Assembly (NCBI GenBank): GCA_041665365.1
Contig: JBAYIY010000005.1
Span: forward strand, 5,946 to 69,945
DNA: 64,000 bases
Direction: 5' to 3'
Source of the DNA: Patescibacteria group bacterium
Lineage (GTDB): Bacteria > Patescibacteriota > Patescibacteriia > UBA9570
The first letter of the stretch is position 1, and each line of letters opens with the position of its first letter. A model generated the notes under the pieces. The model had not been told where the DNA came from and did not search any database. It saw only the letters and a list, made by a program, of their open reading frames with translations. Of the stretch, positions 5,718 through 35,803 are shown one piece after another. The position numbers and the translations under genes are program-made.

Positions 5718-6476
5718 ATGAGAACCGATTGGAATAAAGTATCTATCTGGTATGGTAAACATCTGCAAAAACCAGATACTTACCAACATAGTTTAATTTT
5801 CCCCAAAACACTGCACTTATTACAACCACAACCAGATAAACATTACCTAGATATTGCCTGTGGTGAAGGGGCGTTGGCCGAGCATATCATAAAAACCAAA
5901 AATACTCACGTCACCGGGGTAGATCTTGCCCCAAATTTAATCGCTCAGGCTAACAAAAAACAGTTACGTAACTGCCACTTTATAGTAGGTGATGCCACTA
6001 ATTTTCCCAAACAAATTCTTGAACACCAGTTTGATGGCGCCACTTGTATTTTAGCTTTACAAAATATCGCAGATATCACACCGATTTTCAAAGCCACCGC
6101 TAAAGTTCTAAAACCAAACTCCCCTTTGATTATTGTCTTAAACCATCCTTGTTTTCGTCCACCGCAACAAAGCGGCTGGGGGTTTGATGAACCACGTAAA
6201 CTCCAGTATCGCCGGATTGATACGTATATGAGTAGTTATCATGTGAACTTGACGGCCCATCCCGGTAAAAAAACCACTGTGAGTACAGTATCATTTCATC
6301 GCCCGTTACAAGATTACATAAATGGTTTAGGAGTCGCTGGTTTTATGATTGATCGCCTCGAAGAATGGACCTCCAATCGTGCCAGTCAACCGGGTGGTCG
6401 TGCCAAAGCCGAAAATCGATCCCGCCAGGAGTTTCCGTTGTTTATGGCGATTAGAGCTTATGTCACCTCTTTCTGA
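5718..6476 (+). CDS. class I SAM-dependent methyltransferase
   Basis: Motif I LDIACGEGALAEH, an acidic post-I residue (VTGVDLAP) and motif II/III-like blocks. Confidence 0.7.
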   Translation: MRTDWNKVSIWYGKHLQKPDTYQHSLIFPKTLHLLQPQPDKHYLDIACGEGALAEHIIKTKNTHVTGVDLAPNLIAQANKKQLRNCHFIVGDATNFPKQILEHQFDGATCILALQNIADITPIFKATAKVLKPNSPLIIVLNHPCFRPPQQSGWGFDEPRKLQYRRIDTYMSSYHVNLTAHPGKKTTVSTVSFHRPLQDYINGLGVAGFMIDRLEEWTSNRASQPGGRAKAENRSRQEFPLFMAIRAYVTSF

Positions 6477-8089
6477 TAACAACCTTCACAGTAAACTAAT
6501 TCTTTACGCTCCGGTGAATAGGTAGTAGAAAATTCTGTGCTGCACCGCCCGTGATGACTGTGATCAATTTGGGTGCACATACACTGCCGTTGCCACAGTT
6601 GTCGCGGATTGCGTAGCTGAAAGCGTTGTCGACGCCGTTCATCTGGACACAACTGTGGAATTGGTAAACCCATACGCTGATAAAAATCCAATTCGGCCTG
6701 CACAGTGCGATATGGTTTACCAGTCACGGCGCAAACTAAGGTGTTACTGTTTGTTACACTAGAGCCCGCTGCACTCGTATTTTCCCGCCACAACCAACCA
6801 TGATTACGTGTTTGCTCAGACGTTAATGGGTACCACATTTGCGCCATCGATTCATTATAAGCAAACGGTGACATTGTGATTGGAAAGAATTCACCCCATT
6901 CGCCGGTTTGCTTCATATGGGTAATCAACTTTTGCTGTAACTGTTTATAATCGGTTTCTGAGTAGGGTTTATTAAGAATGCAAAATTTTTCTTGCTTTAA
7001 CCCAACACACCCAAACAAATCATGGCCTTTTTCAATTTCGATACTATACACACAGTTAGTCGCCGACCACGCACCTATGGAAAATTTACAGTTATATGAT
7101 TGATACCCCAAACTACTACCTTCATAAGCTAATTCTATATCGGTAGTATGACAAACATCCATTAAATCTTTCACATGAAAACCAGTATACACATAAGCAC
7201 ACTGATCGATACCAGTTACATCGTAACACTGATAAGCAGCATGCGAATTAAAAATAAAATCACCCGATACTTGCTCGCTGCTGGCTTGCTCTAATGGCCG
7301 ATGAATAGCCTTGATCTTTAGTTCCTCAAATTTTGTTAACAATTCAGTCAGTTTACCCTGTCTTAATTTCTCCATAATCAGGCCCTTCTCTTGTGTATAT
7401 GCCTCCGGTGAATAATGTTTATTATAAATATAATATTGTTTATTTCTTAAATTGGTAGAGAATAAACAATCGGTGCAACCACGACAATCGAACAAAAACA
7501 AGCTATCGGTACAATGCTTACAATTTTGCGCAAACCACAAACGATAACATTTTTCCACATCAACTACCTCATAACAATCTTCACTTTCAATGCAATTCAA
7601 AGTATCCACACAACTAATCGATTTTATGATCTGACTAGAATACAAACAATCTTCATCGTAATCTCCGGCAAAGACCAAATAACAATCTTTGCAATGTCCG
7701 GTCATATTAACATAATTGGAATTCTCATTAGCAATGACTGTTAAAGCCATCTTTGGAACGGCTTTGAAAAGTTTATTCCATTGCGTAAAAAATGGCTGCG
7801 CGAAATCAATCTCTTGACCATAATCTAAAGCAGTCCATTGATCTGATAACCAACAATCGGAACAATATATTGTATAGACTGTTTCAGCTGGATAAATTGA
7901 GATTATTGGTTTATGACAAAGATCACACGGCCGATTAAACATCGTATGCTCATTCCGCCACGCCAAGCGCCGCTGTTGCCGACAATCTGGACACAAGGTT
8001 GGTGCTGGTACAGAAATCTTCTGATAAAAAACCTGATCGGAAGCTGTGATTTGAAAAGTTTTACTGCACTGTTGACATTGTTTGGTCAT
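6458..8089 (-). CDS. Cys-rich double-zinc-ribbon family protein, paralog 1 (unknown function)
   Basis: 543 aa. N-terminal CQQC...CPDCR and CDLCHK...YCSDCW ribbons, a central run of NC..C dyads, the conserved block FGCVGLKQEKFCILNKPYSETDY...GEWGEFFP...SPFAYNE, and a C-terminal block RNPRQLWQRQCMCTQIDH...TTYSPERKELVYCEGCY. The third ribbon is degenerate (CAVTG...LCPDERR). Its start overlaps the paralog 2 stop in ATGA. Confidence 0.8.
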   Translation of the reverse strand: MTKQCQQCSKTFQITASDQVFYQKISVPAPTLCPDCRQQRRLAWRNEHTMFNRPCDLCHKPIISIYPAETVYTIYCSDCWLSDQWTALDYGQEIDFAQPFFTQWNKLFKAVPKMALTVIANENSNYVNMTGHCKDCYLVFAGDYDEDCLYSSQIIKSISCVDTLNCIESEDCYEVVDVEKCYRLWFAQNCKHCTDSLFLFDCRGCTDCLFSTNLRNKQYYIYNKHYSPEAYTQEKGLIMEKLRQGKLTELLTKFEELKIKAIHRPLEQASSEQVSGDFIFNSHAAYQCYDVTGIDQCAYVYTGFHVKDLMDVCHTTDIELAYEGSSLGYQSYNCKFSIGAWSATNCVYSIEIEKGHDLFGCVGLKQEKFCILNKPYSETDYKQLQQKLITHMKQTGEWGEFFPITMSPFAYNESMAQMWYPLTSEQTRNHGWLWRENTSAAGSSVTNSNTLVCAVTGKPYRTVQAELDFYQRMGLPIPQLCPDERRRQRFQLRNPRQLWQRQCMCTQIDHSHHGRCSTEFSTTYSPERKELVYCEGCYQKEVT

Positions 8090-9771
8090 ACTGCTTCTTT
8101 TTGATAACAGTCTTCACAATAGAGAATCTCCTTACGGTCTGGCGAATAGGTTGTTTCAAAGTTCACGGCACAACGGCCTGCATGTTTATGGTCAATTTGT
8201 GTGCACATGCATTGACGCTGCCAGAGCTGGCGAGGATTACGTAAAAATCGACGTTGCAGATGACGACAGTAAAAACAAATATTTGGTAGTGGAATAATAC
8301 GCGCACGGTAATACTCTAGTTCATGGGTGGTAATCTTGTAGTTTTTGCGGCAATTTTGGCAGGCTAGAATTGCAGTCAATATATCATCATTCACTTCCTT
8401 AATATCATCCGGTAAAATGGTCATTGTTTCTTGTCCAACTGTACTAGGTAATTGCTCTTGCCAATGATAGCCCTGAGCTTGTGCCATAGATTGAGTTAGT
8501 GGGAACCACCATTGAGCAGAGGTTTCATTGTAGCCAAATGGACTGATCACCGCAGGAAAGTATTGTCCATATTCACCACGGTCTTGCATGGCCGTTATTA
8601 ACTTAGTACGTAATTCATAATATTCACTCGCCGCATATGACCGATTTAAAATGCAAAATTCTTTTTGTCTTAATGACACAGACCCAAAACAGTTTTTACA
8701 GCCAGATGAGCTGATACAGTATTCCATGTTACTGCTACCATCAAACACTTGGTGACAAAACTTAATGTTATAACAGTTACCCCCGACAATGGTGCAGTCA
8801 TAGATCAATTCGGCATTTAAACCATACTGATAGTAGTCATAACTATCTTTTACGTGCATGGATAACTGCGAACAGAATTTACTGTTCTCCACTTCTCGGC
8901 AATCATAACTAGCCAAGACATTTTTGCTTTGATAAATGTTATTACCGGTGCAATCTTCCGTCTTGTTGCTTTGTTGATATTTGTAAAACCTCGTCACTTG
9001 ATATTGATGTATTTTTTCCAACCAATACTGAACTTGGCTGTGCGAACCAAAATTTATGGCTTCGAGACGATGATTATACTCAACCTCAGTGAGCTGCTTA
9101 TTCAACCAATAATATTTTTGGTTACGTAAACCAACCGATCCAAAGCAATCATGACAACCCACACAATCCTTAAGCATGAAACTGTCCGAACAATTCAAAC
9201 AATCTTGCGACCACTTGAGATTATACGAATCATGACAATCTATACAGTTATAGCAAAGCTCACAGTTGAAATTATTATAACCATCCATGGTATCTTTGGA
9301 TTGTTTTAGGCCGTAAGTGTATAGACAGTTTTCGTTGAGGTCAGCATGAAAGATTAAGTAACAATTTTTATTATCACCGGCATAATTTGTATAATCGCTA
9401 TTTTCATTGTTTCCACCAACATCAGTCGCTTGATGTGGAATACATTGATCAAGTGCTTGCAATTGCGGAAAAAAAGGTTTAGTTAAATCAATCTCACTGC
9501 CATAGTCTAATGGATCCCACTTATCACTCCACCAACAAGCACGACAATATGAAACATAAGGCGAATTTGGTTTATAAATGGTCAGAATTTTTTTGTGACA
9601 CAATTGACACTCTCCTGGATATAAAATCATTTCATTACACCATGTCAGGCGCCGCTGTTGTCGGCAATCTGGACACAAGGTTGGTGCTGGTACAACAATC
9701 TTCTGATAAAAAGCCTGATCGGAATCTGTGATTTGAAAAGTTTTACTGCACTGTTGACATTGTTTGGTCAT
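8086..9771 (-). CDS. Cys-rich double-zinc-ribbon family protein, paralog 2
   Basis: 561 aa. The first 44 residues are near-identical to paralog 1 (MTKQCQQCSKTFQIT.SDQ.FYQKI.VPAPTLCPDCRQQRRL). C-terminal CQNCRKNYKIT...CFYCRH plus RNPRQLWQRQCMCTQIDH...YCEDCY. Confidence 0.8.
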   Translation of the reverse strand: MTKQCQQCSKTFQITDSDQAFYQKIVVPAPTLCPDCRQQRRLTWCNEMILYPGECQLCHKKILTIYKPNSPYVSYCRACWWSDKWDPLDYGSEIDLTKPFFPQLQALDQCIPHQATDVGGNNENSDYTNYAGDNKNCYLIFHADLNENCLYTYGLKQSKDTMDGYNNFNCELCYNCIDCHDSYNLKWSQDCLNCSDSFMLKDCVGCHDCFGSVGLRNQKYYWLNKQLTEVEYNHRLEAINFGSHSQVQYWLEKIHQYQVTRFYKYQQSNKTEDCTGNNIYQSKNVLASYDCREVENSKFCSQLSMHVKDSYDYYQYGLNAELIYDCTIVGGNCYNIKFCHQVFDGSSNMEYCISSSGCKNCFGSVSLRQKEFCILNRSYAASEYYELRTKLITAMQDRGEYGQYFPAVISPFGYNETSAQWWFPLTQSMAQAQGYHWQEQLPSTVGQETMTILPDDIKEVNDDILTAILACQNCRKNYKITTHELEYYRARIIPLPNICFYCRHLQRRFLRNPRQLWQRQCMCTQIDHKHAGRCAVNFETTYSPDRKEILYCEDCYQKEAV

Positions 9772-9800
9772 ACTTCGATAAACTCAGTATAAATAAACTC

Positions 9801-10580
9801 CTATTTACTCGACTCAACGGATTGATGCCACAACGTATAGAAGATATGTGCCTGATGATTGGCTAATTCTTTATTATGAATCGTAATACCAAATAGTTCT
9901 TGCCCGGGGAAAATGTAGGCTACGTGATCGGCGTAAATTAATTGATCACAGGTAGCACCAAGTTGACGCTGGCTTGATTCTGGAATTATTTCCTGAATAG
10001 TACTGCGCGCGACCGTATATGAACCGGAGGTTTCTAGAATCATTTTCAAGTGTAGATCTTTTTCCTTGCTGCGTAACATGATCTCCTCTAAAAATTCTAG
10101 ATACCGGCCATGCAGCGTGGGTGTATAATCCACCGCCGCGAGCACTAATAAATCGTCACCCTTTTTGGAATAAGTTAAAGCCTCATCCCAAATTTTGGCA
10201 ATCGCTTCCTGTGCGCGGAAATAATGAATCTCCAAATCTTCCGGTACTGACGCATAGAGAACATTTAATTCGCCAATTAGATTAGGCATGTCGGTGGCCA
10301 ACTTATCCAAATTGCGGCGCTCTTGTTCAAACACGGTCAGTAATTTAGCCGGTTTGGCCACTTTGCATTTTTGCCCATAGCTGCGCACATCCATATCCGC
10401 TAGCCCCTTTTGATTCAAGACTTTAAAAATATTGTAACCAGTCATGCGGGATAATCCAGCCCGTTCGGCAATTTGCGGAATCGTGGCTAAACCCAACTCT
10501 AATCCGGCCACATAAAATTTTATATCGTTGTCCGTTAAACCAAGTTGTAAAAGATCTTTCTTAATTTTGCTTGTGATCAT
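9801..10580 (-). CDS. TrmB-family transcriptional regulator
   Basis: N-terminal wHTH typical of TrmB (LGLTDNDIKFYVAGLELGLATIPQIAERAGLSRMTGYNIFKVLNQKGL) followed by a C-terminal effector domain. Confidence 0.65.
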   Translation of the reverse strand: MITSKIKKDLLQLGLTDNDIKFYVAGLELGLATIPQIAERAGLSRMTGYNIFKVLNQKGLADMDVRSYGQKCKVAKPAKLLTVFEQERRNLDKLATDMPNLIGELNVLYASVPEDLEIHYFRAQEAIAKIWDEALTYSKKGDDLLVLAAVDYTPTLHGRYLEFLEEIMLRSKEKDLHLKMILETSGSYTVARSTIQEIIPESSQRQLGATCDQLIYADHVAYIFPGQELFGITIHNKELANHQAHIFYTLWHQSVESSK

Positions 10581-10690
10581 AGGTTATCATGTGCCGTAAC
10601 GTGGTCAAACGTGATTATATTTCTACCTGTGGAAAATGAATAAAATAGCTAGCCTTAGGTTAGCAGATTAACCAAACATGTCAAATCAAC

Positions 10691-12307
10691 TTATACTACA
10701 GTTTTTGTATAACAGTCTTCACAATACACTAACTCTTTTCTATCTGGTGAATAAGTGGTTTCAAATTCGGTTTTACAACCAGTATTCATGCATTGTTTAT
10801 GCCATAATTGATACGGCACACGATGTTTCATACGCTCAATATGTCGGCAGTCTGGGCAAATTTCTGGCCAGGGTATGTTCTGAGTGGCGTAAAACTTCAA
10901 TTCTTGCGGAATTAATTTAAAACTCTTGTGACAGTGTGTGCAATCATAAATTTGTTTAGTCGCATCGGCTTTACCATAAGTGCCAGGCAGCTGATCTTGC
11001 CACATCCAACCGCTAGCGCGCGCTTGCGCTTTGGTTAGCGGAAACATTTCTTGGGCCATCGTCTCATTATACGCATAGGTAGACAGCGCCGGCGAAAAGA
11101 ATTGACCCCACTCGCCGGTTTGTTTCATGTGCTCGATTAATTTATCTTTCAGTGTATTATAATCTGTCTCAGAATACTGTTTATTTAAAATGCAATATTT
11201 TTCATTTTTTAAACCAATACAACCAAAACAATTTTCCGGTCCATTTAAACATTGATCACAGTACAAGTTATTTTGCCCATGCCAAACAATATTACAAAAC
11301 CAATTACCATACGCTTGTCCACCACAAGCATGCGCTTCATAGAGCAGCTCGGCTTCTTCACCGTAAACGGTAAAATCGTAGCAATCTTTCGATTGAAAGA
11401 TGCCAAAACAATACGCACAATGTTCTGAGGTTTTTGTTTGAAAGGAAAATGTTGTAGCCAGATTGCCGACTAAATAATCACCACTACTCATCTCATTGCG
11501 TAAACCACGATAATACTTATACGGTACTGTCAGGGTGAATTCATTAAACTCATCACGCGCTCGGTTAATGCCTGCCCGAGTATCTAATTGATAACTAGCT
11601 AACTTTTTAGCATAGTCTTCCGGGTTATATTGCTGATTAAAAATACAATACGATTTGTTCCGTAAACCCACCGACATAAAACAATTTGAACATCCATTAC
11701 AATCTGTTAAAAAATATGAATCGCGACAATTATTAACATGCCACGAGTAATTGACATTGTAACAATCCTCACTATGCGTGGTTTCGTAACACAGCTCACA
11801 TTTGTGGTTATAACTGCAATCAATTGAATCTTTTACATAGTAGATGCCCAACGAATATAAGGAATTTTCACAATCAGTGGCATCGTACACCATGTAACAA
11901 TTCTTTAATCTATAAACGTGATTACAATAATCACTATTTTCCCCGGTGGCATCATTCATTAAAGCAATGCGCGGTACACGCTGTTTGAGCTCTAACAGTT
12001 GATCAAACAACGGTCGCGTAAAATCAATGTCTTGACCATAATCAAGTGGGTTCCATGTATCACTCCACCAACACGTGCGACAATACACTGTATACTTTTT
12101 ATCCGGTGAATACACAGACAAAGTATTATTACCACACACCGCACACTGGCGTTGATATAAAGTATGTTCATTACGATTCGTTAAACGTAATTGAAACCGA
12201 CACGCCGGACACCGTACCGGCTTAGGTACGCCCAAACGCTTGTAATAAGCCTGATCCGCCTCAGTAATGATGAAACTATGTTGACAGTGCTGACAAGTTG
12301 TTTCCAT
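10691..12307 (-). CDS. Cys-rich double-zinc-ribbon family protein, paralog 3
   Basis: 538 aa. METTCQHCQHSFIITEADQAYYKRLGVPKPVRCPACRFQLRL, central Cys dyads, the FGCIGLKNEKYCILNKQYSETDY...GEWGQFF block, and C-terminal CTHCHKSF...CPDCRH...TTYSPDRKELVYCEDCY. Confidence 0.8.
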   Translation of the reverse strand: METTCQHCQHSFIITEADQAYYKRLGVPKPVRCPACRFQLRLTNRNEHTLYQRQCAVCGNNTLSVYSPDKKYTVYCRTCWWSDTWNPLDYGQDIDFTRPLFDQLLELKQRVPRIALMNDATGENSDYCNHVYRLKNCYMVYDATDCENSLYSLGIYYVKDSIDCSYNHKCELCYETTHSEDCYNVNYSWHVNNCRDSYFLTDCNGCSNCFMSVGLRNKSYCIFNQQYNPEDYAKKLASYQLDTRAGINRARDEFNEFTLTVPYKYYRGLRNEMSSGDYLVGNLATTFSFQTKTSEHCAYCFGIFQSKDCYDFTVYGEEAELLYEAHACGGQAYGNWFCNIVWHGQNNLYCDQCLNGPENCFGCIGLKNEKYCILNKQYSETDYNTLKDKLIEHMKQTGEWGQFFSPALSTYAYNETMAQEMFPLTKAQARASGWMWQDQLPGTYGKADATKQIYDCTHCHKSFKLIPQELKFYATQNIPWPEICPDCRHIERMKHRVPYQLWHKQCMNTGCKTEFETTYSPDRKELVYCEDCYTKTVV

Positions 12308-12314
12308 AAGGTGA

Positions 12315-13877
12315 TTAATATATTAGCTTATTGTAACACCCTTCACAATACACTGTTTCTTTTCTATCTGGTGCATAAGTGGTTTCAAACTCTACCTGAC
12401 ACCCTTTATTCATACATTGACGGTGCCATAAGCGACGCGGATTGCGTAATTTCATTCTATCCAAATGTCGGCACTGCGGACAAAGCTGCGGTACTGGCAA
12501 ATGCCATTGCTGATAATAGGCCAGTTCATTAGCAACTAGGCGATAATTTTTCGCACAGCGCTGACAGGTTGGTAGATTATCAACCTGGTTGTCTAGCTGT
12601 TTTGTGACAGTTTCAGCCATAGGAAAATACTCCTGAGCCACTGTGTCTTGATATGGAAATGGCGACAGTGACAATGGAAAAAATTCTCCCCACTCCCCGT
12701 GTTGTGTCATACCTTGTTTAATTTGTTTTACCAAAGTATTATAATCTGTTTCCGAATAAGACTTATTTAAAATACAATATTGTTGTTTACGTAAACCAAT
12801 GCAACCAAATAAATTCTGGCTGGTAAAACAATGATCACAATAAAACAAATTGGAATTCCCATCCCAACAAATATTTAAACCAAGACTGTTTTTAGTCTGT
12901 AAACTACTATGACATTCGTAAGTTAACTCATTCTCAACTCCACCAATAAATAAATCCCGACTGTCCTTTGTTTGCCGCACATCAAATACATAAGCTGTTT
13001 GCTCCTGGTCAATCACATCAAACCCATAAGTAGTTTGGTAACAATTTTTCATTAAATCACCGGAAGATTGTTCACAATTAATTTGCTCACTGGCTAAATG
13101 CGGTAACGCTATTTCTAGTTTAGCTAGTTGAGCGCGATACTGTGCAATCGTTTCATGTGTCCAATTAACCGCCGCTAAACGTGCTCGGTAGTCAGCTTCA
13201 CTTAATTGTTCATTGAACCAACAAAACTTTTTATTGCGCAAATTAACACAGCCAAAACAATCGCTGCAGTTACGACACGCATATGAAAAATAACAATCCC
13301 GACAATTAACACAGCGTTGTGAAAAAAACACTTGATAACAATCACTGCACTCAACTATTTCGTAACACAATTCACAGCGATACGGCATAATAAAATCCAT
13401 ACAGTCACGCGAGTGAAATGGAAACATACCATACAGACAATTTTCATTATCAATGCCACCGGCTGACAAATATAAATTTTTCCCGGCTACTGCCCACGGC
13501 GCATAATCGCAATTTTCACAATTGCGAGTGGTAATGGCCATGCGCGGCACCACTAATTGTAAAGCCCGAATTTGCTCAAAAAAAGATTGACCCGGTTGAT
13601 ATACCCGACCAAAACTAAGTGGATCCCAAACATCAGACAACCAGCAAGTTTGACAGTATATGGTGTATGGGCTATCTGGTGCATATAATGAAATCACTGC
13701 TTTGCCACATAAGCGGCACTTATCTGCGTACAAACTCCGCTCATTCCGCCACGCCAAGCGCCGCTGTTGCCGACAATCTGGACACAAGGTTGGCTGCGGT
13801 ACAGCCATACGTTGATAAAACTCCAGATCGGCTGGATAAATGGTAAATGTTTGCTGACAATTAGTGCACTTACTCAT
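12315..13877 (-). CDS. Cys-rich double-zinc-ribbon family protein, paralog 4
   Basis: The track start is 13904; I prefer Met10 (MSKCTNCQQTF, ATG 13875-13877) by alignment to the other paralogs. That start lies 2 nt after the RelE stop. Same conserved blocks (FGCIGLRKQQYCILNKSYSETDY...GEWGEFFP...; C-terminal CPQCRH...TTYAPDRKETVYCEGCY). Confidence 0.75.
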   Translation of the reverse strand: MSKCTNCQQTFTIYPADLEFYQRMAVPQPTLCPDCRQQRRLAWRNERSLYADKCRLCGKAVISLYAPDSPYTIYCQTCWLSDVWDPLSFGRVYQPGQSFFEQIRALQLVVPRMAITTRNCENCDYAPWAVAGKNLYLSAGGIDNENCLYGMFPFHSRDCMDFIMPYRCELCYEIVECSDCYQVFFSQRCVNCRDCYFSYACRNCSDCFGCVNLRNKKFCWFNEQLSEADYRARLAAVNWTHETIAQYRAQLAKLEIALPHLASEQINCEQSSGDLMKNCYQTTYGFDVIDQEQTAYVFDVRQTKDSRDLFIGGVENELTYECHSSLQTKNSLGLNICWDGNSNLFYCDHCFTSQNLFGCIGLRKQQYCILNKSYSETDYNTLVKQIKQGMTQHGEWGEFFPLSLSPFPYQDTVAQEYFPMAETVTKQLDNQVDNLPTCQRCAKNYRLVANELAYYQQWHLPVPQLCPQCRHLDRMKLRNPRRLWHRQCMNKGCQVEFETTYAPDRKETVYCEGCYNKLIY

Positions 13878-14139
13878 AAACGTCACGCCGATGTCCAACA
13901 TCAAGAATGATTAATTTAATTGTCGAAAAAGATTCATGACTTAATTGTAAAATCACCCGATAATCACCTACCCGCAAACGATGTGTGGCTGGAGCAAAAT
14001 TATGCAACGGTTTTAAAACCGATATTATATCCGGATGGGTTTTAAGCTGTTTTAGTTTGCTGACAATTCGGCTCTGTTGTACGACATGTAATTTTTTGAA
14101 TCGTTTCTCAGCCCACTGACTAAAAACAAAAGTAACCAT
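13870..14139 (-). CDS. type II toxin, RelE/ParE family
   Basis: 89 aa. C-terminal RVGDYRVILQL...LDVGHRRDVYE matches the RelE/ParE core motif. It lies 3 nt downstream of the antitoxin gene. Confidence 0.8.
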   Translation of the reverse strand: MVTFVFSQWAEKRFKKLHVVQQSRIVSKLKQLKTHPDIISVLKPLHNFAPATHRLRVGDYRVILQLSHESFSTIKLIILDVGHRRDVYE

Positions 14140-14141
14140 GT

Positions 14142-14390
14142 TTAAATGACTAAACTACTAAGACCAGATTTAGCTGATTGTTGATAACGCCGTTGCAATT
14201 TTTCAGCATTTTTATTCATGGCAAAATCTTCTAAATAATCACTAATGGTGTCATCACAACCATCAAAATACGGTAACATAACAATTCTACCTTTGCCGTG
14301 ATTGGTGACAATATAGCTTTTGTCTGCAATGGCAGTAGAAATGGTTCCAATGCGTTGTTGTACTTCAGTTGTAGTAATAATACTAGTCAT
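14142..14390 (-). CDS. type II antitoxin, Phd/YefM-like
   Basis: 82 aa with the Phd/YefM-like pattern (TTTEVQQRIGTISTAIADKSYIVTNHGKGRIVMLPYFDG). Upstream of and tightly coupled to the RelE/ParE gene. Confidence 0.55.
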   Translation of the reverse strand: MTSIITTTEVQQRIGTISTAIADKSYIVTNHGKGRIVMLPYFDGCDDTISDYLEDFAMNKNAEKLQRRYQQSAKSGLSSLVI

Positions 14391-14441
14391 AGTTATATTT
14401 TATTTAATATATATTATCGTATACTATTTCATATATTTATG

Positions 14442-16013
14442 TCAAGCTACTATTCTTTGATAACAGTCTTCACAATACACTAACTCTTTTCTATCTGATG
14501 CATAAGTGGTTTCGAATTCGTTTTTACAACCTTTATTCATGCATTGACGATGCCACAAGGTCATTGGGTTTTGAAATTTGAATCGTTCCGCCAGACGACA
14601 GTTTGGGCACAAGTGTGGTTGGGGTAGACGCATCTTTTGATAAAAAGCTAGCTCTTGGGCAATAATCTTAAATGGGTGGGTACACTGGGTGGTTTTGGTT
14701 TCAGTTAATGGAAAATATGCTTGAGCCAAAGTTTCATTATAAGTATACATGGATAAATCTAATGGAAAAAATTCACCATACGTGTATCTCAGACCTTTGG
14801 TATCAACGTACGGCATGTCGATCATGTGTTGTTTAATTTTTTTGACTAGATCGTGGTAAGCAGATGCAGAATACTGTTTATTTAAAATACAATACTGTTT
14901 TTTTCTGACACCGACACAACCGAAGATATCGGCTGAATTTATGGCTAACAGCGCATATTCTAAATTACGACAATCCGGCCAGCTCATGATACTAAATTTC
15001 ACATTGTAAACATTCTCCCCTACCCCCACACATTCATAGGCTCGCTCCACATTATTACCCCAGGATAAATAATCATAAGAGTCACGTATGGGATTAAGCC
15101 CACTTAACATAATGTATTTGCAATTTTCGGCCTGACTAACTTGATAAGCCTGATAAGTATGTCTAGAATTATCAACATAATCGCCAGACACACTGTCATT
15201 TTTTTTACCATGCATGTATTTTACTGGGTATTGCAACCAATTATTACTCGCTTCAGTTTTGAGCCGGTGTATTTCAGTATTAGATGTAAAGTCTACGCTC
15301 GCTAATTTAGCCAGGTAGGTGTCTTTATCCAGTGGCTGATTAAACCAATAATAATTTTGATTATGCAAATTAGCTGACCCAAAACAATTGGTGCAACCAA
15401 CTAAATTTCGTGAAAAATATATATCACTAGAATCATTACAATCAATCGAGTAAAAGGTGCGATAACATTTTTTTATGTTACTACTCCAATAACACAATTC
15501 CGACTCGTCAACCATGTTGCAATCAAAACAATCTTTAGATTTAGTGATATTATCGCAATAATAAGAATCTTCGACATAATCAGAATGAAACACCAGATAA
15601 CAATTTTTTAAATGACCCACATTCATACAGTAGTCACTATTCTCCAATGTGGGAGTGTCAGAGCATAATGCCATCAAGGGCACGCGCTGCATGAGTTGTT
15701 TAAATTGTGTAAAAAACGGTTTAGAAAAATCATAGTCAGTGCCATATGTCATCGCCTCCCACTGGTCAGACCACCAACAAGTGTTACAGTACACTGTATA
15801 AGGTTTATCTGAGGAATACATTGATAACATTGACTTACCGCATAAATCACACTGGTCTTGATACAACGACCGCATGTTATAAAAACTCAACCGCCGAATT
15901 AACCGACACTGTGGACACCACGTGGGTGGTGGCACAGCCATTTGTTTATAAAAATCTAAATCCATTTGATCAAGCACAAAGCGTTGCTGACAGCGAACAC
16001 ATTGTTTAATCAT
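14442..16013 (-). CDS. Cys-rich double-zinc-ribbon family protein, paralog 5
   Basis: 523 aa. MIKQCVRCQQRFVLDQMDLDFYKQMAVPPPTWCPQCRLIRRL, Cys dyads, FGCVGVRKKQYCILNKQYSASAY, and a C-terminal CPNCR...NPMTLWHRQCMNKGC...TTYASDRKELVYCEDCY. Its start overlaps the stop of the 923-aa gene (ATGA). Confidence 0.8.
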   Translation of the reverse strand: MIKQCVRCQQRFVLDQMDLDFYKQMAVPPPTWCPQCRLIRRLSFYNMRSLYQDQCDLCGKSMLSMYSSDKPYTVYCNTCWWSDQWEAMTYGTDYDFSKPFFTQFKQLMQRVPLMALCSDTPTLENSDYCMNVGHLKNCYLVFHSDYVEDSYYCDNITKSKDCFDCNMVDESELCYWSSNIKKCYRTFYSIDCNDSSDIYFSRNLVGCTNCFGSANLHNQNYYWFNQPLDKDTYLAKLASVDFTSNTEIHRLKTEASNNWLQYPVKYMHGKKNDSVSGDYVDNSRHTYQAYQVSQAENCKYIMLSGLNPIRDSYDYLSWGNNVERAYECVGVGENVYNVKFSIMSWPDCRNLEYALLAINSADIFGCVGVRKKQYCILNKQYSASAYHDLVKKIKQHMIDMPYVDTKGLRYTYGEFFPLDLSMYTYNETLAQAYFPLTETKTTQCTHPFKIIAQELAFYQKMRLPQPHLCPNCRLAERFKFQNPMTLWHRQCMNKGCKNEFETTYASDRKELVYCEDCYQRIVA

Positions 16014-18781
16014 ATATTTTTCAGCTCATTTAGTCTTTTTTTCACTCTTTCATGAACTGATTGAGCCACGGCTGATTTATCTGAATCCATAAAACAACTC
16101 TCTAGTCTGGTTAATATACTAGATTGCGTTACAGCTTCACCAGCCCCAAATACTCGTTTTCTAATGGCAAGATTAATTTCACGTATTACTATTTTTTTTA
16201 ATTCTTGTGCCAGTGCTCTAACTTGATTTGGTAATAATACTAACACCGCTTTTTGAAGATTATCTATTGATCCAGGGATCAATTTCTTTACTTCAGCAGT
16301 TGTAGAGTTATGCTGAAACATTACTACACCTGACCAAAGGGCAGCTCTGTAATCTTCTTGGTAACACAGACGCAGAGACAATTGATCAATTGCCTGTTCA
16401 CCCTGTTGCATGCTAATAAAACCAGGATCATTTGGAATATATTGTTCAGCTAAACGAAATAACTTTGTCTGCCAATCATGTTTGTAATTTATTATATTAT
16501 CAAAATATATATTATCAAAAAGATTAGGATCATCATCTCTCATTTTTTTTAAAGTATCTCTCCACTGATCTAAAGTTGTAATTCTATCTATTTTTTTTGT
16601 TTTAGGTTGGCCTTCTTCATAAACTGTAACTTCTTGTGCTTCAAGTGGTTTGGCAAACTCAAGTAAGGCATTATACTTTGGATCAAATAATTTTTGTAAT
16701 AAAACTTTCCGGTCGGCTTCGGGCATGGCTTCAATAATCGCCTCAAAATCACCCTCGCGTACTATTCTACCCCATTGTTCTACAAATTGATCAGGTGTTA
16801 CGATGCGTTGTAGTACCCGATATATCGCTCCCGGTTCACCGTTTGGTCGGTAATTATAAATTGTCTCTATATATTTTTTAAATTTCTCTGATTCTGGAAC
16901 ATTTGGGTCATCTTCAATAAGACGTTGCCCAATAATAAACACTTTACTATCTACTTCTTTCGCCATCGCATAAAGTCTAGTTGGTTTAAGAATTTTTCGC
17001 CAAACTGCTGCCACAGTTTTTGGTTTAACCCCCTGTCTTTTTTGCCAGGCACGACGTGCTCGTTGAAACGTAGATTCATCTTTCATAGCTTGCGCCTCAC
17101 GTTCTACTAATCCATCATACCATTTCAACCATTGTTCTTGAGTGATATTTGGATGCGCTTCCCATACATCTCTTAATCCAAGTTGACGATCCAGTCGATG
17201 TAGTCTTTGTTCTTTAGTCAAATCATGCTGAAATTCATCACACAGTAACGCTGTATCAGATACAGTTTCCCAAATTTGTAAGCGCATATCTTCAAATATA
17301 GGTCCAGTTAGGGTTTTTAATTTCATAGTTCCAACACGAGCCTCTTTAATTTTTTTAATCTCAGGATCATTTTGCATAACTTCAGGTAAACTATTCCAAG
17401 TAGCAAAAAATACATCTGGAGTACCAGTTTTAAGACGGTGTAGAGTTCTTTCACGTTCGGCAAAGGAGACAACTTTCAACATGGCTTCAAGATCATGGCG
17501 GATTTTGTACCCCGGCATAAACTGCATATACATACCAGCTAACAACACTGGGTGAACTGTTTGCTCAGTGGCCGCTTGTCTAAATTGAGCATCAATAGTG
17601 CGCATGGCAGCATCAGAGATGGCGGTTAATTCCGGCATGGGGGTATCAACCTCAAGTAAGGCTTCAACTCGTTTTTTAAATAGTTGTAGACCTTCATTAT
17701 CTTCTGGAATGGATAAATGTAATGACCGATATAAGGCGAGATGAAACACATTACCAAATACCCCACTGCGAGCGGCGGTTGGCTCGGCATAATCATGGCC
17801 AGGGGTAACGCCGATCATTTGTAAAAACAATAATGGATTAGTAGCTTTAACTTTTTCAGCAGCATTAAGTAAGGCAATAACATCTTCAGAATCACCATGG
17901 GCAAAGTGTAGCGTGGCGCGATAATCAGCCAGTTCAGCTGGAGACATGTCGTCTCGTAATAGCTTACTGTGTTCATCAATCCAAGTAATCAGCGTTTGAT
18001 AAGCCGCGTGATCCGGGGCATGTTCTAAATCATAGGCTAAAGTATCTGATCGACGCCGTAATTCATTGGGTAAAGTACGTGGTGCCCTATCACGCCTGAT
18101 CTCTAATCTGGTTTGCCAATAGTCTTGATGAGTTGCACCATCTAATGGATCAATTTCTCCCACCCATTTAATAGCTTCTTTACCGGGATGAACCGGGGTA
18201 GTGAAATCTAAAATTGGAAAAGTAGGATCTTGGTCATGCACTGCCTGCATCAAACCAAATAATGAAGTGACGCGTTCGGCACCGGCTTCCCCCCTGTATA
18301 GACCAGTTTGAACAGCATCTAAAACATCAATCGTTCTAATCAGTTCCTGTAGATTATAAAATTTTGGGTTTAATTCACCAATTAAATATCCTTGTAAGGT
18401 GCGTAGTTGAGTTTGTTCAGCTGGGTTTAATGGTGCACCATTTCCTGCCGCGCGATAGAGTAATGCTGGATACGATGTATTTACAGCAAAAGCCTCTAAG
18501 CGTGTTTCAATGTCCCCCACTAATACCACTGCATCAGACTTATCCGCTACTCGTCTGGATAAACTCTCTAAGGCTCCATCGTTGGTACCAGTTCTAAAAG
18601 TAACATCTAAAACTTGCTGCGCCGACTTAGGTGGGACAGTTTTGATCTCATCTTTAACTATTTCTACACCAGTATCGGCAGGTTGCAATTTACGACCTGT
18701 ATCCACAGTTCTTGCTTGTTTTCCTCTTCTCCCTCTACCTCGAGTTTCTACAGACATAATTACTCCAACAAGTCTTTCCAA
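16010..18781 (-). CDS. large hypothetical protein (923 aa), Arg-rich N-terminus
   Basis: Long uninterrupted ORF with the same codon usage as its neighbours. Basic N-terminus (RGRGRRGKQARTVDTGRK). Predicted soluble and helical. No motif I recognise. Translationally coupled at both ends. Confidence 0.7.
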   Translation of the reverse strand: MERLVGVIMSVETRGRGRRGKQARTVDTGRKLQPADTGVEIVKDEIKTVPPKSAQQVLDVTFRTGTNDGALESLSRRVADKSDAVVLVGDIETRLEAFAVNTSYPALLYRAAGNGAPLNPAEQTQLRTLQGYLIGELNPKFYNLQELIRTIDVLDAVQTGLYRGEAGAERVTSLFGLMQAVHDQDPTFPILDFTTPVHPGKEAIKWVGEIDPLDGATHQDYWQTRLEIRRDRAPRTLPNELRRRSDTLAYDLEHAPDHAAYQTLITWIDEHSKLLRDDMSPAELADYRATLHFAHGDSEDVIALLNAAEKVKATNPLLFLQMIGVTPGHDYAEPTAARSGVFGNVFHLALYRSLHLSIPEDNEGLQLFKKRVEALLEVDTPMPELTAISDAAMRTIDAQFRQAATEQTVHPVLLAGMYMQFMPGYKIRHDLEAMLKVVSFAERERTLHRLKTGTPDVFFATWNSLPEVMQNDPEIKKIKEARVGTMKLKTLTGPIFEDMRLQIWETVSDTALLCDEFQHDLTKEQRLHRLDRQLGLRDVWEAHPNITQEQWLKWYDGLVEREAQAMKDESTFQRARRAWQKRQGVKPKTVAAVWRKILKPTRLYAMAKEVDSKVFIIGQRLIEDDPNVPESEKFKKYIETIYNYRPNGEPGAIYRVLQRIVTPDQFVEQWGRIVREGDFEAIIEAMPEADRKVLLQKLFDPKYNALLEFAKPLEAQEVTVYEEGQPKTKKIDRITTLDQWRDTLKKMRDDDPNLFDNIYFDNIINYKHDWQTKLFRLAEQYIPNDPGFISMQQGEQAIDQLSLRLCYQEDYRAALWSGVVMFQHNSTTAEVKKLIPGSIDNLQKAVLVLLPNQVRALAQELKKIVIREINLAIRKRVFGAGEAVTQSSILTRLESCFMDSDKSAVAQSVHERVKKRLNELKNI

Positions 18782-20823
18782 GATACTTTATTGGCTGGCG
18801 CATTGATTTGCGGTGGAGTGATTGGTTTTGGTTTAACCGGTTGTGGTTGTACAGGTTTATTTGGTTGCGGTGGTACCTGTTGGGGCAATTCACCACCTCT
18901 ATTTCGCCGTCGTCGGCGCCGTTTGCGTTTTTGTCCATCACCGGTTGGAGTTGGTTGAACATTCTGTGGTTTTGGTTGTTGAACCACGGGTTTTTCCAAA
19001 ACAACACGTGGAGCCGTACCATTTTTTAATGCCTGTAGGGGCAATTCATGAATTGCCCCTACAGGGTGAATTGGTTCAATCTCATCATCCGGCACATCTT
19101 CGAACTCATCATCATTATCTTCATCAACAACCAGATCAACTTTCTTACTCCCCTCTCCTGCAGAAGGAGAGGGGCTGGGGGCGAGGTCTCTCAATTGATG
19201 ATTAATAAAACTAATCCGTGGCCGAGTTGATGCATTATTATTTTCTACTTCATCTTCTTTAATAGCTTTTGCTAATTCGACTACTGCTGGTTTATTTGGT
19301 TTTGTTTGTTCAACTTGAATTGGCTTAGCTGGTACTTCACCGGGAATAAAATTACTGGTATCAACCTGCCCATTAGTTGCTTCGGCTTCATTGACGGTTA
19401 GCTGTACACCCTCTTTAGACATTTTAGCTGGTTTGTCATCGTCTGATAATTCAGGTTCAGCAGCGGTGATAATTTGATCCGGCCAATCCATCTCATCGTC
19501 TTTGGGTGAGGTTGTTGGAGCTATCTCGGGGTTAACATTGGGTCGATTAATTTGTACGCCACTCCAACGAATAATCCGATCTTCCACCACGGCTTGAGGG
19601 CGAGCATACCGTTCGCGTGAGACTTTAATCACTTTGTCTTTATTGTCGGTGGCACCGGTGGCTGGTGGTAAACCAATAGCTGAGAATGGTTCGGTGGCCA
19701 CACCATCAACCATTAAACGCATGCAAACAGTATATTTTTTCAGATTAACAATATCGGCTGGTAAAAACTGTGGCGCGAATTCTAACTCTAACTCGGCAGC
19801 ATCAGTTGCACCCACTCGAAACACAATCATTGTCCCGACGTTACCAAACACAGCGGCTTTTACCACATCACCTAATTGTTCAAAATACTGATGCGCCATG
19901 ATTAAACACAAGCGATATTTTCTGGCTTCAGATAAAATTCCAGCAAAACTATCGGTGGCGAAATTTTGAAACTCATCAACATATAAATAGAAATCTTTCC
20001 GCTCCTCTTCTGGAATATCTACCCGGCTCATGGCCGCAATTTGCAATTTTGTAATCATCATGGCTCCCAGCAAGGCCGAATTTTCTTCACCAATTCTGCC
20101 TTTAGCCAGATTCATAATTAAAATCTTCTGATTGTCCATCACATCACGCATCTCGATAGTGCTCTTCGATTGTCCGACAATGTTACGAATAATCGCTGAA
20201 GCTAAAAACTGACCGACTTTGTTTTGAATTGGCGCAATCGCTTCAGTTCTAAATTTTTCTGAATAATTGGCGTATTCATCGGCCCAAAAGGTTTTCACCA
20301 CTGGGTCGGTCACTTTATCAACCACTTTTTTACGATAGGCTTTATCGACCAACATGCGCATTAAACCCAACAACGTGCTGCCGGGATATTCTAATAACGC
20401 CAAAATGGTATTGGTCATAATGTACTCCATGCGTGGTCCCCAAGAATCAGCCCAGATTTTCTTGAACACACCCACTAAACCATAGGCCACTAGATGTTTA
20501 TAATCTTCGCCAATACTTTCTAAAATATTAAACGCAATCGGATATTTGGTATCAGACGGATTAAAGTAGATCACATCATTAACCCGATTAGTGGGAATGA
20601 ACTCTAAAATCTTTTCGGCTAAATCACCATGTGGGTCAACTACGGCTACGCCATGCCCAGCCCGAATATCACTAATAATCGCATTTTCCAACATGGTGGA
20701 TTTACCCATGCCGGTCTTACCCACTAAATACATATGCCGGCGCCGATCATCCCGTTTAATACCAAATTTACGCCGTTGGTTACGGAAGTTAGTTTCGGCA
20801 AAGACGGCAATTTCGCTGGACAT
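18760..20823 (-). CDS. P-loop ATPase, TraD/VirD4 (type IV coupling protein)/HerA-FtsK-like
   Basis: Walker A MYLVGKTGMGKST and Walker B FYLYVDEFQNF. T4CP-like motifs VVDPHGD and LIMAHQYFEQL. The ~200-aa C-terminal tail is disordered, Pro/Asp/Glu-rich, and ends in KRKRRRRRRNRGG plus a P/Q-rich repeat. Confidence 0.75.
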   Translation of the reverse strand: MSSEIAVFAETNFRNQRRKFGIKRDDRRRHMYLVGKTGMGKSTMLENAIISDIRAGHGVAVVDPHGDLAEKILEFIPTNRVNDVIYFNPSDTKYPIAFNILESIGEDYKHLVAYGLVGVFKKIWADSWGPRMEYIMTNTILALLEYPGSTLLGLMRMLVDKAYRKKVVDKVTDPVVKTFWADEYANYSEKFRTEAIAPIQNKVGQFLASAIIRNIVGQSKSTIEMRDVMDNQKILIMNLAKGRIGEENSALLGAMMITKLQIAAMSRVDIPEEERKDFYLYVDEFQNFATDSFAGILSEARKYRLCLIMAHQYFEQLGDVVKAAVFGNVGTMIVFRVGATDAAELELEFAPQFLPADIVNLKKYTVCMRLMVDGVATEPFSAIGLPPATGATDNKDKVIKVSRERYARPQAVVEDRIIRWSGVQINRPNVNPEIAPTTSPKDDEMDWPDQIITAAEPELSDDDKPAKMSKEGVQLTVNEAEATNGQVDTSNFIPGEVPAKPIQVEQTKPNKPAVVELAKAIKEDEVENNNASTRPRISFINHQLRDLAPSPSPSAGEGSKKVDLVVDEDNDDEFEDVPDDEIEPIHPVGAIHELPLQALKNGTAPRVVLEKPVVQQPKPQNVQPTPTGDGQKRKRRRRRRNRGGELPQQVPPQPNKPVQPQPVKPKPITPPQINAPANKVSWKDLLE

Positions 20824-20825
20824 AT

Positions 20826-22319
20826 TTATACAAATGGTAAATTAGATGGCGCTTCTGGTTCGACTTTAATTGCTGGAGTTGCGGGAGATGTTTGAGTTGT
20901 TGGTGTTTCCATGACGGGTTCAACCATGACGACAGGTTTAACAGTAACACCACCGCCTTTTTCTAACTGCACCGGAATGGCAGCACTAGCCTCAGCTTCA
21001 TCATAGCGCAATAACGTCGGCGGTTCCACACCACGCGATTGCGCCTTAGCCACATACGGCGCTCGCACATCAATTGACGGAAAGTGAAATAAAGCCGTAA
21101 TCTCTTCGGTTGATAAAATAAACCCTTCATGTTCACCTCGTTCCATGTCGCGTGACTTATATGCCCAATACATCCGGCGATAACGATTCAATACCCGATA
21201 CTTTGGAAATACAAACCGCCAAGATAAACAATTTTGATCAGTCCGCGTAATTTCACCCTCAGTAAAAGAATTAATATAACGATACAAACGCAAACCGCTT
21301 AACATACCACGACGAACTTTTTTGGAATCAACCATAGCCGGTGGAGCAAAATACATAAAGCGCACTTTTGAATGAAACGGCCAACGCGAGGCTTTTTTAT
21401 CAACTTCCTCAACAAATTCCTGTTCTGGTTTAGTCATACGCTGTCTTTCTTCTAAACGAGTATCATCGTGTGTTTCGGCCGCCGCTGATTCACCGCCAAA
21501 CAGAGCCTGATTAGTCATTTGCAGTGTTGATATGACAGTAGATTGAACGTGATCCATAATATCCGGGCCAGCATGGCCAGATTTGCCTGGCTCAACTAGA
21601 TTCATGATGGTTTCTTGTGCCCGGATTTTAAGTTTACCAAGATCGGCTGGTTGAATCATAATTTGATACCACAATTTTTCACCGGGTTGCAAGCGACTCA
21701 TAAATTCCAAAAGGTTGGCAAATGGATCAACCGCCTTCTGCGCTAAACTATGTTCAAACGCCGGATAAGGTTTAATCGGTAAAACATCGTCACCTTCCAA
21801 ACGCATCTCTGATCCCCATCCGGTCACTTTACGAGAATTAATCATTTCTAATGAGATATCTTTCGTATAATCTTCGACTTCAGACATGATGGCATCGGGG
21901 TAATGAGAATAAAATGCCGCCTGCACCATTTCTTTATAATATTTTGGAGCACGTACATAATAAGTAATATAGCCACCATCACTGACAATTTCGAAAGAGT
22001 ATTGCTCTTGTACAAAACCCAACCACCAAGTTTCGTACCAATCGGGTTGGTTATAAATACCATGCAGTTGTACAAAAATCTGTTCTACTGCCTTCATACT
22101 CTGCTCATTGTTCAGCGGCACTTCAATGCGATACATGACATGTTTGGTATGGTGTTTAAACTTTTCTTGAATCCAAAACAACCAACCGGTAAAGGCCATT
22201 TTTATCATGATCGGTATAAAAATCAATGCCCCACCATGACCAAGCAAAAACCATAACGCTTGAAACGGGTTATTGCCGTACTCTTTTAAAATATATTCAA
22301 GCAGCGGGGGCATACACAA
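20826..22319 (-). CDS. membrane-anchored hypothetical protein (497 aa)
   Basis: Two N-terminal TM helices (ALWFLLGHGGALIFIPIMI / FTGWLFWI), a large soluble domain and a low-complexity Pro/Thr-rich C-terminus. It ends 3 nt before the ATPase gene starts. Confidence 0.7.
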   Translation of the reverse strand: MCMPPLLEYILKEYGNNPFQALWFLLGHGGALIFIPIMIKMAFTGWLFWIQEKFKHHTKHVMYRIEVPLNNEQSMKAVEQIFVQLHGIYNQPDWYETWWLGFVQEQYSFEIVSDGGYITYYVRAPKYYKEMVQAAFYSHYPDAIMSEVEDYTKDISLEMINSRKVTGWGSEMRLEGDDVLPIKPYPAFEHSLAQKAVDPFANLLEFMSRLQPGEKLWYQIMIQPADLGKLKIRAQETIMNLVEPGKSGHAGPDIMDHVQSTVISTLQMTNQALFGGESAAAETHDDTRLEERQRMTKPEQEFVEEVDKKASRWPFHSKVRFMYFAPPAMVDSKKVRRGMLSGLRLYRYINSFTEGEITRTDQNCLSWRFVFPKYRVLNRYRRMYWAYKSRDMERGEHEGFILSTEEITALFHFPSIDVRAPYVAKAQSRGVEPPTLLRYDEAEASAAIPVQLEKGGGVTVKPVVMVEPVMETPTTQTSPATPAIKVEPEAPSNLPFV

Positions 22320-35770: not shown

Positions 35771-35803
35771 ACGGCATTGTAATAATACTACAAAAAATCT
35801 AAT

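Follow-up and report, generated by a model that had tools for sequence, protein, structure and literature searches.

Patescibacteria have genomes of about 1 Mb, most of them are thought to live on other microbes, and how they recognize and exploit their hosts is largely unknown. Here, we analyzed a 64-kb window of one such genome (64,000 nucleotides of contig JBAYIY010000005.1, GenBank assembly GCA_041665365.1, lineage UBA9570), in which five genes (p1 to p5) encode cysteine-rich, zinc-finger-containing proteins of a family for which no description was found in the literature. The fingers have counterparts in small standalone zinc-ribbon proteins, among which the CxxC-x17-CxxC proteins of Methanosarcina mazei bind zinc by inductively coupled plasma mass spectrometry and have no established function (PMC12704099). 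Arrays of diverged paralogs are described for the VirB2-like pilins of the same phylum, and the same study, which covered 2,918 Patescibacteria genomes, counted 5,713 VirD4-type coupling proteins, located only 148 of these near virB4, and raised exaptation as a possibility (PMC12102498). A VirD4-like ATPase gene also lies close to the five genes considered here, which are listed below in the numbering of the whole window, with p3 as the reference copy for modelling.

p1, 6458..8089, minus strand: 543 amino acids (aa), 34 Cys; the third zinc site is a zinc-less half-site variant (C..TGK...CPDERR)
p2, 8086..9771, minus strand: 561 aa, 40 Cys; 4 nucleotides (nt) are shared between its stop and the start of p1
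p3, 10691..12307, minus strand: 538 aa, 38 Cys; clear orthologs (53–67%) exist for this copy alone
p4, 12315..13877, minus strand: 520 aa from the ATG at 13877, 40 Cys; this ATG agrees with the M-x3-C start of the family
p5, 14442..16013, minus strand: 523 aa, 31 Cys; the linker before zinc site 3 is shortened and one site-3 ligand is missing

The original prediction, made from the letters of this stretch, had described five tandem paralogs of 523–561 aa with about 45 cysteines each. All five open reading frames (ORFs) are present and intact on the minus strand, and their lengths are confirmed except for that of p4, which brings the range to 520–561 aa; the cysteine count was too high (31–40 per protein, or 5.9–7.7% of residues), and the copies are not strictly contiguous, since a TrmB-like gene and a ParE/Phd pair lie between them. 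The five proteins align end to end with pairwise identities of 41–45%, and no further copies or fragments were found by tblastn elsewhere in the window. The motifs quoted in the original prediction were all recovered (C-x2-C-x24-CP-x-CR, C-x2-C-x17-C-x2-CW, FGC.GLR...YCILNK.YS, GEWGEFFP...YNET.AQ and the C-terminal CP.CRH...FETTY.PDRKE.VYCE.CY). The exact p2 sequence occurs also on the JGI contig Ga0376277_0048071. The five genes are most likely functional paralogs of a large undescribed family.

The predicted novelty of this family was borne out by the searches. Pfam recognized the terminal fingers only, and nothing in NCBIfam, PADLOC or PHROGs matched the body of the proteins; the zf_Tbcl family (PF13451) was found at or above its gathering cutoff of 24 bits in p1 (28.9), p2 (28.1), p3 (33.8) and p4 (27.6), and below it in p5 (19.4), while PF23477 and TIGR04272 gave sub-cutoff matches, the best scores coming from p3 only. 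Structure comparison of the full p3 model with Foldseek gave no match in the PDB (best E = 1.5), and a profile search against PDB sequences returned weak, generic LIM-like matches only (E = 0.0018, at the second Tbcl_2-type finger). No paralog matched a Fer4-type (4Fe-4S) family at E ≤ 1, a search in which the neighboring QueG does match such families, and p3 matched no known anti-phage defence component in PADLOC-DB 2.0; within the locus, only the ATPase matched PADLOC models, namely the generic mad8 and HerA ones. Source annotations of relatives read "hypothetical protein", "zinc-ribbon domain containing protein" or "Zinc-binding domain-containing protein" (EKD79334.1, MBI2415774.1, OGZ63517.1). 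The parts are of known fold (treble-clef/zinc-ribbon fingers and a beta-solenoid). Neither Pfam, NCBIfam, PADLOC, PHROGs and the PDB nor the literature searched describes the combination of domains, the family or its organization in arrays.

The homolog and copy-number search proposed with the original prediction gave more than 6,693 family proteins in a word-indexed search, and 2,462 representatives of clusters at 50% identity (E ≤ 1e-30) when all of 1.84 billion cluster representatives were searched with a profile, where nearly all best matches were 523–602 aa long and aligned end to end. At least 577 loci were confirmed in species-representative genomes. Among the named matches listed, Patescibacteria prevailed overwhelmingly (Peregrini-/Peribacteria, Gracilibacteria, Kerfeld-, Falkow-, Magasanik-, Staskawicz-, Nomura-, Jorgensen-, Lipton- and Harrisonbacteria, Paceibacteria), together with a few bins labelled Gammaproteobacteria, Bdellovibrionales or Micrarchaeota (loci L014 and L024 are also among the oddly labelled ones). 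The closest relatives of the window array belong to metagenome-assembled genomes (MAGs) labelled Gammaproteobacteria (L001, L003 and L071); these are probably mislabelled or contaminated Patescibacteria, because they have the same synteny, with the TrmB-like gene shared at 71–73% identity in L003 and L071. No relatives were found in IMG/VR viral contigs, and GenBank phages and PLSDB plasmids yielded finger-only matches and no full family member. One homolog (P0206, 731 aa) carries a GNAT acetyltransferase domain N-terminal to a zinc-less first finger, which is either a real fusion or a gene-calling artefact.

The arrangement of the domains was obtained by modelling p3 with AlphaFold2 from an input of 58 homologs (predicted local distance difference test, pLDDT, 83.7; predicted template modelling score 0.85). 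In this model, two fingers (residues 2–45 and 50–82) and a helix are followed by a strand-turn stack (~121–228), helices (229–258), a second stack (~271–370), a helical/loop block (371–440) and two further fingers (453–495 and 503–536), corresponding to the following features:

12173..12304, minus strand: zf_Tbcl treble-clef finger, zinc site 1 (C5, C8, C33, C36), p3 residues 2–45; PF13451 at 33.8 bits against a cutoff of 24; arginine stripe R37, R40, R41, R45
12062..12160, minus strand: CxxC-x17-CxxC finger, zinc site 2 (C55, C58, C76, C79), p3 residues 50–82; PF23477 at 22.4 bits (cutoff 27) and TIGR04272 at 19.5 bits (cutoff 36), both below threshold
11624..11947, minus strand: predicted beta-solenoid half 1, p3 residues 121–228; Cys/Ser core ladder, with a conserved DCxGCxxCFGCxxLRNK..Y cap
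11498..11623, minus strand: linker helices, p3 residues 229–270; entropy 2.5–3.0 bits, identity between paralogs 10–35%
11198..11497, minus strand: predicted beta-solenoid half 2, p3 residues 271–370; homologous to half 1 and variable, entropy 2.2–3.1 bits
10988..11197, minus strand: conserved block YCILNKQYS...GEWGEFFP...YNET.AQ..FPL, p3 residues 371–440; pLDDT 91–95
10823..10951, minus strand: second zf_Tbcl finger, zinc site 3 (C456, C459, C484, C487), p3 residues 453–495; second PF13451 stretch, arginine stripe R488, R492, R496
10700..10801, minus strand: second Tbcl_2-type finger, zinc site 4 (C506, C511, C529, C532), p3 residues 503–536; complete in 224 of 236 family members

The homology of the two solenoid halves was seen in a local self-alignment (score 138), and the CxxC-x17-CxxC spacing of the second finger (C55-x2-C58-x17-C76-x2-C79) is kept in all five paralogs. 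As proposed before, the proteins have neither a signal peptide nor a transmembrane (TM) segment: the highest Kyte-Doolittle hydropathy of any 19-residue window was 0.58–1.37 in p1 to p5, never reaching 1.6, and each protein starts four residues before its first zinc ligand, with M1-x3-C5 kept in 85–97% of the family.

The roles of the cysteines were separated in an alignment of 236 full-length members from 80 loci, on which the family-wide cysteine and conservation statistics are based. The number of cysteines per member ranges from 22 to 50. At the protein ends, zinc ligands are lost in an all-or-none manner: site 1 has all of its ligands in 214 members (and in p1 to p5), the ligand number at site 2 has a bimodal distribution (four in 124 members, none or one in 107), and site 3 is complete in 177 members (among the paralogs, in p2 to p4 only) and reduced to exactly two ligands in 38. 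In this pattern the four finger sites behave as real metal sites do, which supports the idea of zinc modules at both ends; about 16 cysteines are predicted to hold four structural zinc ions per protein. The two-ligand half-site has its own form (C-x2-[ST]...C-P-x-E-R), with conserved replacement residues, and recurs in distant lineages (at site 3 in the 38 members mentioned and at site 1 in 13). It accounts for p1, in which the loss of cysteine pairs from the third ribbon had been correctly noticed: two of the four site-3 ligands are missing there (C..TGK...CPDER(R/H), residues ~446–485, window ~6630–6750), and p5 lacks one. The arginine stripe persists in the zinc-less variants, which suggests that the finger fold and its function survive without the metal.

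The central cysteines behave differently. They had been described as a run of NC..C/DC.GC..CF dyads, and taking these for ribbons or metal pairs was not supported. They follow one another every third residue with a super-period of 12 residues (autocorrelation in solenoid 1 at lag 3, 0.66 for Cys and 0.69 for Cys/Ser; at lag 12, 0.57 for Cys and 0.66 for Cys/Ser; weaker in solenoid 2). Cysteine occupies these positions in 25–93% of members, the alternatives being Ser, Val, Leu and Ala; its counts per putative coil are unimodal, its losses are graded, and cysteines at i and i+6 show no co-variation (mean phi at spacing 6, -0.02). On the basis of co-variation and count distributions, obligate disulfide or metal pairing was rejected. 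The periodicity, the exchange with Ser, Val and Leu, the graded loss and the missing co-variation identify the central cysteines as the inward packing positions of a predicted narrow beta-solenoid, and we assign the other ~20 cysteines to the packing of its core. The last coil of solenoid 1 is particularly cysteine-rich (C203, C206, C209 and C212 are all present in 129 members, and at least three of them in 199) and is a possible extra site.

Conservation is equally uneven along the proteins. The most conserved segment (361–430) reaches entropies as low as 0.85 bits, with N375, Y378 and G401 invariant in all members, and the least conserved ones are residues 241–270 and 301–360; conserved termini around a variable middle had been predicted, and the variable middle is real, although its most variable stretch lies at ~241–360 and not at 230–330. 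Charge is positive in the two finger regions (+2.1 and +2.6), where arginine stripes are conserved (R37, R40, R41, R45 and R488, R492, R496, R504), and negative in the solenoids (-4.1 and -4.4); the median isoelectric point is 6.3.

Diversification of the family, also part of the original prediction, was supported by comparisons among and within arrays. The 80 loci contain 272 family ORFs (median 3 per locus, maximum 11), with at least two copies in 57 loci and at least five in 16, and a single array of 2–11 copies can thus take up 1–2% of a genome. Within-array identity is low (median 40%, maximum 58%) and close to that between loci (median 37%). As synonymous sites are saturated at 41–45% protein identity, divergence relative to syntenic neighbors was used as a measure of rate instead of the ratio of nonsynonymous to synonymous substitutions. 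The window is syntenic with the Candidatus Kerfeldbacteria MAG L002 (through a sigma-r4 protein, SecDF, YkuD paralogs, and the ATPase with its partner). Identities to L002 and L010, respectively, are 85% and 71% for the VirD4-like ATPase, 70% and 74% for the TrmB-like protein, and 59% and 60% for a 497-aa membrane protein that accompanies the ATPase; the array copies, with the exception of p3, reach only 35–45%, and the family therefore diverges much faster than the neighboring genes. The exception has counterparts in L001, L002 and L003 at 67%, 55% and 53% identity. Sequence exchange between copies was also detected:

7950..8092, unstranded: gene-conversion tract at the 5' end of p1, 143 nt, 92% nucleotide identity to the 5' end of p2 (9632–9774); repeat family D4

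The first 141 nt of p1 and p2 are 91% identical, against an overall protein identity of 45%, and we attribute this tract to gene conversion between the two adjacent genes. As a separate observation, the 3' ends of p3, p4 and p5 are 74–75% identical over 151 nt.

The array lies at the downstream end of a stretch of co-directional, tightly packed genes (23391 to 6458), several of which overlap at their start and stop codons, in the order sigma-r4-like protein, 497-aa membrane protein, VirD4-like ATPase, 923-aa protein, p5, Phd, ParE, p4, p3, TrmB-like protein, p2, p1. Its non-family members in and next to the array are:

9801..10580, minus strand: TrmB-like winged-helix regulator, 259 aa, inside the array (PF01978, E = 5.7e-8)
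13870..14390, minus strand: ParE-like toxin (PF05016, E = 1.3e-4) and Phd/YefM-like antitoxin (PF02604, E = 1.7e-4); a non-family insertion
16010..18781, minus strand: 923-aa ORF flanked by the ATPase gene and p5, both of which it overlaps at its start and stop
18760..20823, minus strand: soluble VirD4/TrwB-like ATPase of the type IV coupling protein (T4CP)/HerA-FtsK superfamily (PF10412, E = 5.7e-14)
20826..22319, minus strand: 497-aa membrane-anchored partner of the ATPase, with a TM segment at residues ~21–39

The toxin-antitoxin pair sits between p5 and p4, the ParE stop and the p4 start overlapping by 8 nt. The 923-aa ORF had no Pfam, PADLOC or PHROG match and no homolog in 79 related loci, the syntenic L002 and L010 among them, and appears to be a lineage-specific insertion. 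Clustering of the ORFs of the 80 array loci gave only two strongly recurrent neighbor families, the TrmB-like winged helix-turn-helix (wHTH) and the VirD4-like ATPase. The former is present in 21 array loci, mostly divergent and directly upstream ("T< C> C>") or embedded, and in none of 80 ATPase-centred loci. A PaaX-like wHTH protein of 170 aa (PF20803, Cas2-like middle domain) occurs in eight loci that have no TrmB-like gene (L030, L031, L038, L049, L051, L053, L078, L079) and may be an alternative local regulator. CutA1 (PF03091, divalent-ion tolerance) was found within or beside the arrays, on the same strand, in seven mostly Paceibacteria-type loci (L013, L033, L038, L040, L043, L070, L008).

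The ATPase occurs in 28 of the 80 array loci, often interleaved with the array copies on the same strand. The reverse test recovered family genes in only 2 of 51 ATPase-centred metagenome loci (≥ 8 kb), against 47 of 80 ATPase-centred loci for the 497-aa partner, and the ATPase and its partner were therefore taken as an independent module that does not depend on the arrays; a tight functional operon of the arrays with the ATPase was accordingly downgraded. Initial clustering had grouped the 497-aa protein with the ATPase, but direct BLASTP shows no homology between them; the link is provided by genuine fusion proteins of other lineages. In Peregrinibacteria, the two make up single proteins of ~747 aa, and both are covered by phrog_5156. 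The pairing extends to L008, L017, L032, L056–L058 and L074. The 497-aa protein may provide the membrane anchor that is missing from the "orphan" coupling proteins of the phylum. No VirB4 or VirB6 was found among the scanned ORFs of the window, which is otherwise a housekeeping segment of the chromosome (QueG, SecDF, SecA, Mur ligases, MurG, FtsW, MurJ, LepA, RecJ, glycosyltransferases) with nearly all genes on the minus strand. Further away, at 16–20 kb from the array, two Fic/DOC-domain proteins (32006–33034 and 34712–35857, minus strand) flank a gene for a major facilitator superfamily transporter on the opposite strand; two adjacent paralogs (26525–27916 and 27941–29335, minus strand) combine FG-GAP repeats with a YkuD L,D-transpeptidase domain, and a third FG-GAP protein (614 aa, 46730–48574, minus strand) lies within the Mur/FtsW cell-wall cluster.

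Taking these data together, we tentatively favor, at somewhat less than an even chance, that the proteins act as cytoplasmic, zinc-stapled recognition or binding scaffolds with a variable surface; from sequence and model we infer this scaffold role, as well as the existence of a bound target and of any link to the neighboring VirD4-like ATPase. The conserved parts (the arginine-striped fingers, the first solenoid half, and the YCILNK...GEWGEFFP...YNET block) would dock onto a common partner, which could be a nucleic acid or a conserved protein, and paralogs would differ in what they recognize through the fast-evolving linker helices and the second solenoid half. On this view, the 2–11 copies of a genome would form a set of differently tuned binders, expressed from arrays under a winged-helix regulator encoded nearby, with duplication, divergence and gene conversion as the sources of their diversity, a pattern that would suit proteins involved in host, phage or competitor interactions. 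A more far-reaching version, in which the arrays encode a previously unrecognized, Patescibacteria-specific class of intracellular hypervariable recognition proteins, each a minimal 12-residue beta-helix stapled by four zinc fingers, that form the specificity repertoire of a new conflict or host-interaction system and serve the orphan VirD4-like ATPase and its membrane partner as clients or substrate-loading adaptors, seems to us unlikely. In a related variant of this far-reaching version, the cysteine-lined core would hold a column of metal ions or act as a thiol ladder switched by redox state, which would be a new structural principle.

Several points weigh against the scaffold interpretation. 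The counts come from the best matches to a single query, 80 loci of up to 22 kb each, which lack phylogenetic independence. The fast divergence could reflect relaxed constraint instead of diversification, and the invariant polar residues (Q103, D163, N224, D311, N375, Y378, E469) could equally mark an active site. CutA1 inside the arrays could hint at a metal-related role, or at clade synteny. The association with the ATPase is asymmetric (28/80 in one direction, 2/51 in the other), and the geometry of the solenoid coils is uncertain in the model, where pLDDT falls to 61–78.

Among the alternatives, the one that fares best, improbable as we judge it, is that the T4CP-like ATPase, together with its membrane partner, exports the proteins as cargo or effectors, with no Sec signal involved, to the host of the episymbiont or to the cell surface, where the cysteine ladder would form extracellular disulfides and the variable half would meet host targets. 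The ATPase gene is interleaved with the copies ("C> C> V> C>") in three arrangements in three clades, and in the window the partner, the ATPase, the 923-aa ORF and p5 are linked by start/stop codon overlaps; orphan T4CPs abound in the phylum and may have been exapted (PMC12102498), the paralogs have no Sec signal, and their diversifying arrays resemble those of the VirB2 pilins. However, ATPase-centred loci rarely contain family genes and frequently contain the partner, VirB4 and VirB6 are absent from the window, four zinc modules folded in the cytoplasm would be awkward for an unfolding translocase, and the i/i+6 co-variation expected of disulfide pairs is missing. Moreover, the frequency of the ATPase in array loci is uncontrolled for its background rate in synteny blocks of the candidate phyla radiation.

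Still less probable are thiol-rich metal or redox buffers, in which the solenoid core would bind additional metal or, in these anaerobes, serve to sense oxygen or as a thiol that is sacrificed. Up to 50 cysteines per protein, the last coil of solenoid 1 with its four inward cysteines, the CutA1 genes in or beside arrays, and the high dosage that multi-copy arrays would provide are compatible with such a role; against it, the central cysteines exchange with Ser, Val and Leu and have unimodal counts, as opposed to the all-or-none finger sites, no Fer4 or Fe-S family matched, and fast diversification would be unexpected for a storage protein. Nor do the proteins resemble metallothioneins, having 6–8% cysteine (5.9–7.7% in the five paralogs), many conserved Tyr, Phe and Trp residues and a graded loss of the central cysteines. 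We give about the same low credence to an enzymatic function, with the invariant block at the end of the beta-helix (N375, K376, Y378, G401, Y413, N414, E415) as the active site, as in beta-helix carbohydrate-active enzymes or acyltransferases, and with paralogs differing in substrate. Residues 371–430 are by far the most conserved and contain invariant polar residues, and the GNAT fusion of one homolog would point the same way, but that lone case is possibly a gene-calling artefact, no enzyme family or structure matched above noise, the coil period is 12 as against 18 in hexapeptide-repeat enzymes, and no cofactor- or nucleotide-binding motif was seen. Finally, a decaying or selfish repeat with redundant copies drifting into pseudogenes, a fate that the original prediction had suspected for some copies, is hard to credit at all, since the missing site-3 ligands of p1 and p5 and the toxin-antitoxin insertion are set against five full-length ORFs with all conserved blocks, a half-site variant that recurs in 38 of 236 members with conserved replacements, arrays of 2–11 intact copies in 57 of 80 loci of otherwise streamlined genomes, and no fragments in the window.

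As a large, fast-evolving and lineage-specific family, these proteins are candidates for lineage-specific interaction biology, and they provide a lead on why Patescibacteria keep thousands of coupling-protein ATPases away from type IV secretion genes. The predicted design, a minimal beta-helix lined with cysteines that carries a duplicated pair of treble-clef fingers as its caps, is unusual. For annotation, the ~16 zinc ligands can now be told apart from the ~20 core cysteines, and domain boundaries are available for a new family model. That the family represents a new type of system we regard as doubtful; the functional evidence is circumstantial.

Among known proteins, the finger pair is most similar to that of standalone zinc-ribbon proteins (PF13451 with PF23477/TIGR04272), such as the 92-aa WP_187028406.1 of Pusillibacter faecalis, to which p3 residues 4–122 align in tblastn and for which no solved relative was found, or the Methanosarcina mazei CxxC-x17-CxxC small proteins. 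The two-finger unit is the same (C-x2-C...F.....(E/D)Q.FY...G.P.P..C..CR followed by CxxC-x17-CxxC). In the array family, by contrast, this unit occurs twice and flanks a solenoid body of ~350 residues that belongs to no described family, and some copies have the zinc-less half-site. In a single case, the gene of the 92-aa protein lies directly downstream of a sigma-70 family sigma factor gene (L161, 5297–6258, Pusillibacter faecalis plasmid pMM59_01), an adjacency that could hint at a transcription-related role of the finger unit. The Tenebrio antifreeze beta-helix, with its 12-residue coil, is comparable to the predicted solenoid; other narrow beta-solenoids considered were curli CsgA (8c50), the spruce-budworm antifreeze protein (1m8n) and the ryegrass ice-binding protein (3ult). 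The disulfide-braced insect antifreeze beta-helix differs in its obligate i/i+6 cysteine pairs, which the array family does not have.

The variant-specific surface proteins (VSPs) and high-cysteine proteins of Giardia and the cysteine-rich Hcp paralogs of Helicobacter (compare PMC3608669) likewise combine a conserved scaffold with surfaces that vary, in many diverged copies within a small genome; they are secreted or membrane-anchored and of unrelated fold, and the likeness is one of analogy only. The VirB2-like pilins of Patescibacteria (PMC12102498) are small, Sec-secreted membrane proteins encoded near virB4, whereas the array proteins are predicted cytoplasmic zinc proteins of ~550 aa with no virB4 within 64 kb. 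Both nevertheless occur in the same phylum as arrays of 2–11 paralogs with low within-array identity (~25% for the pilins, ~40% for the array family), and both can be read as diversification for host interaction.

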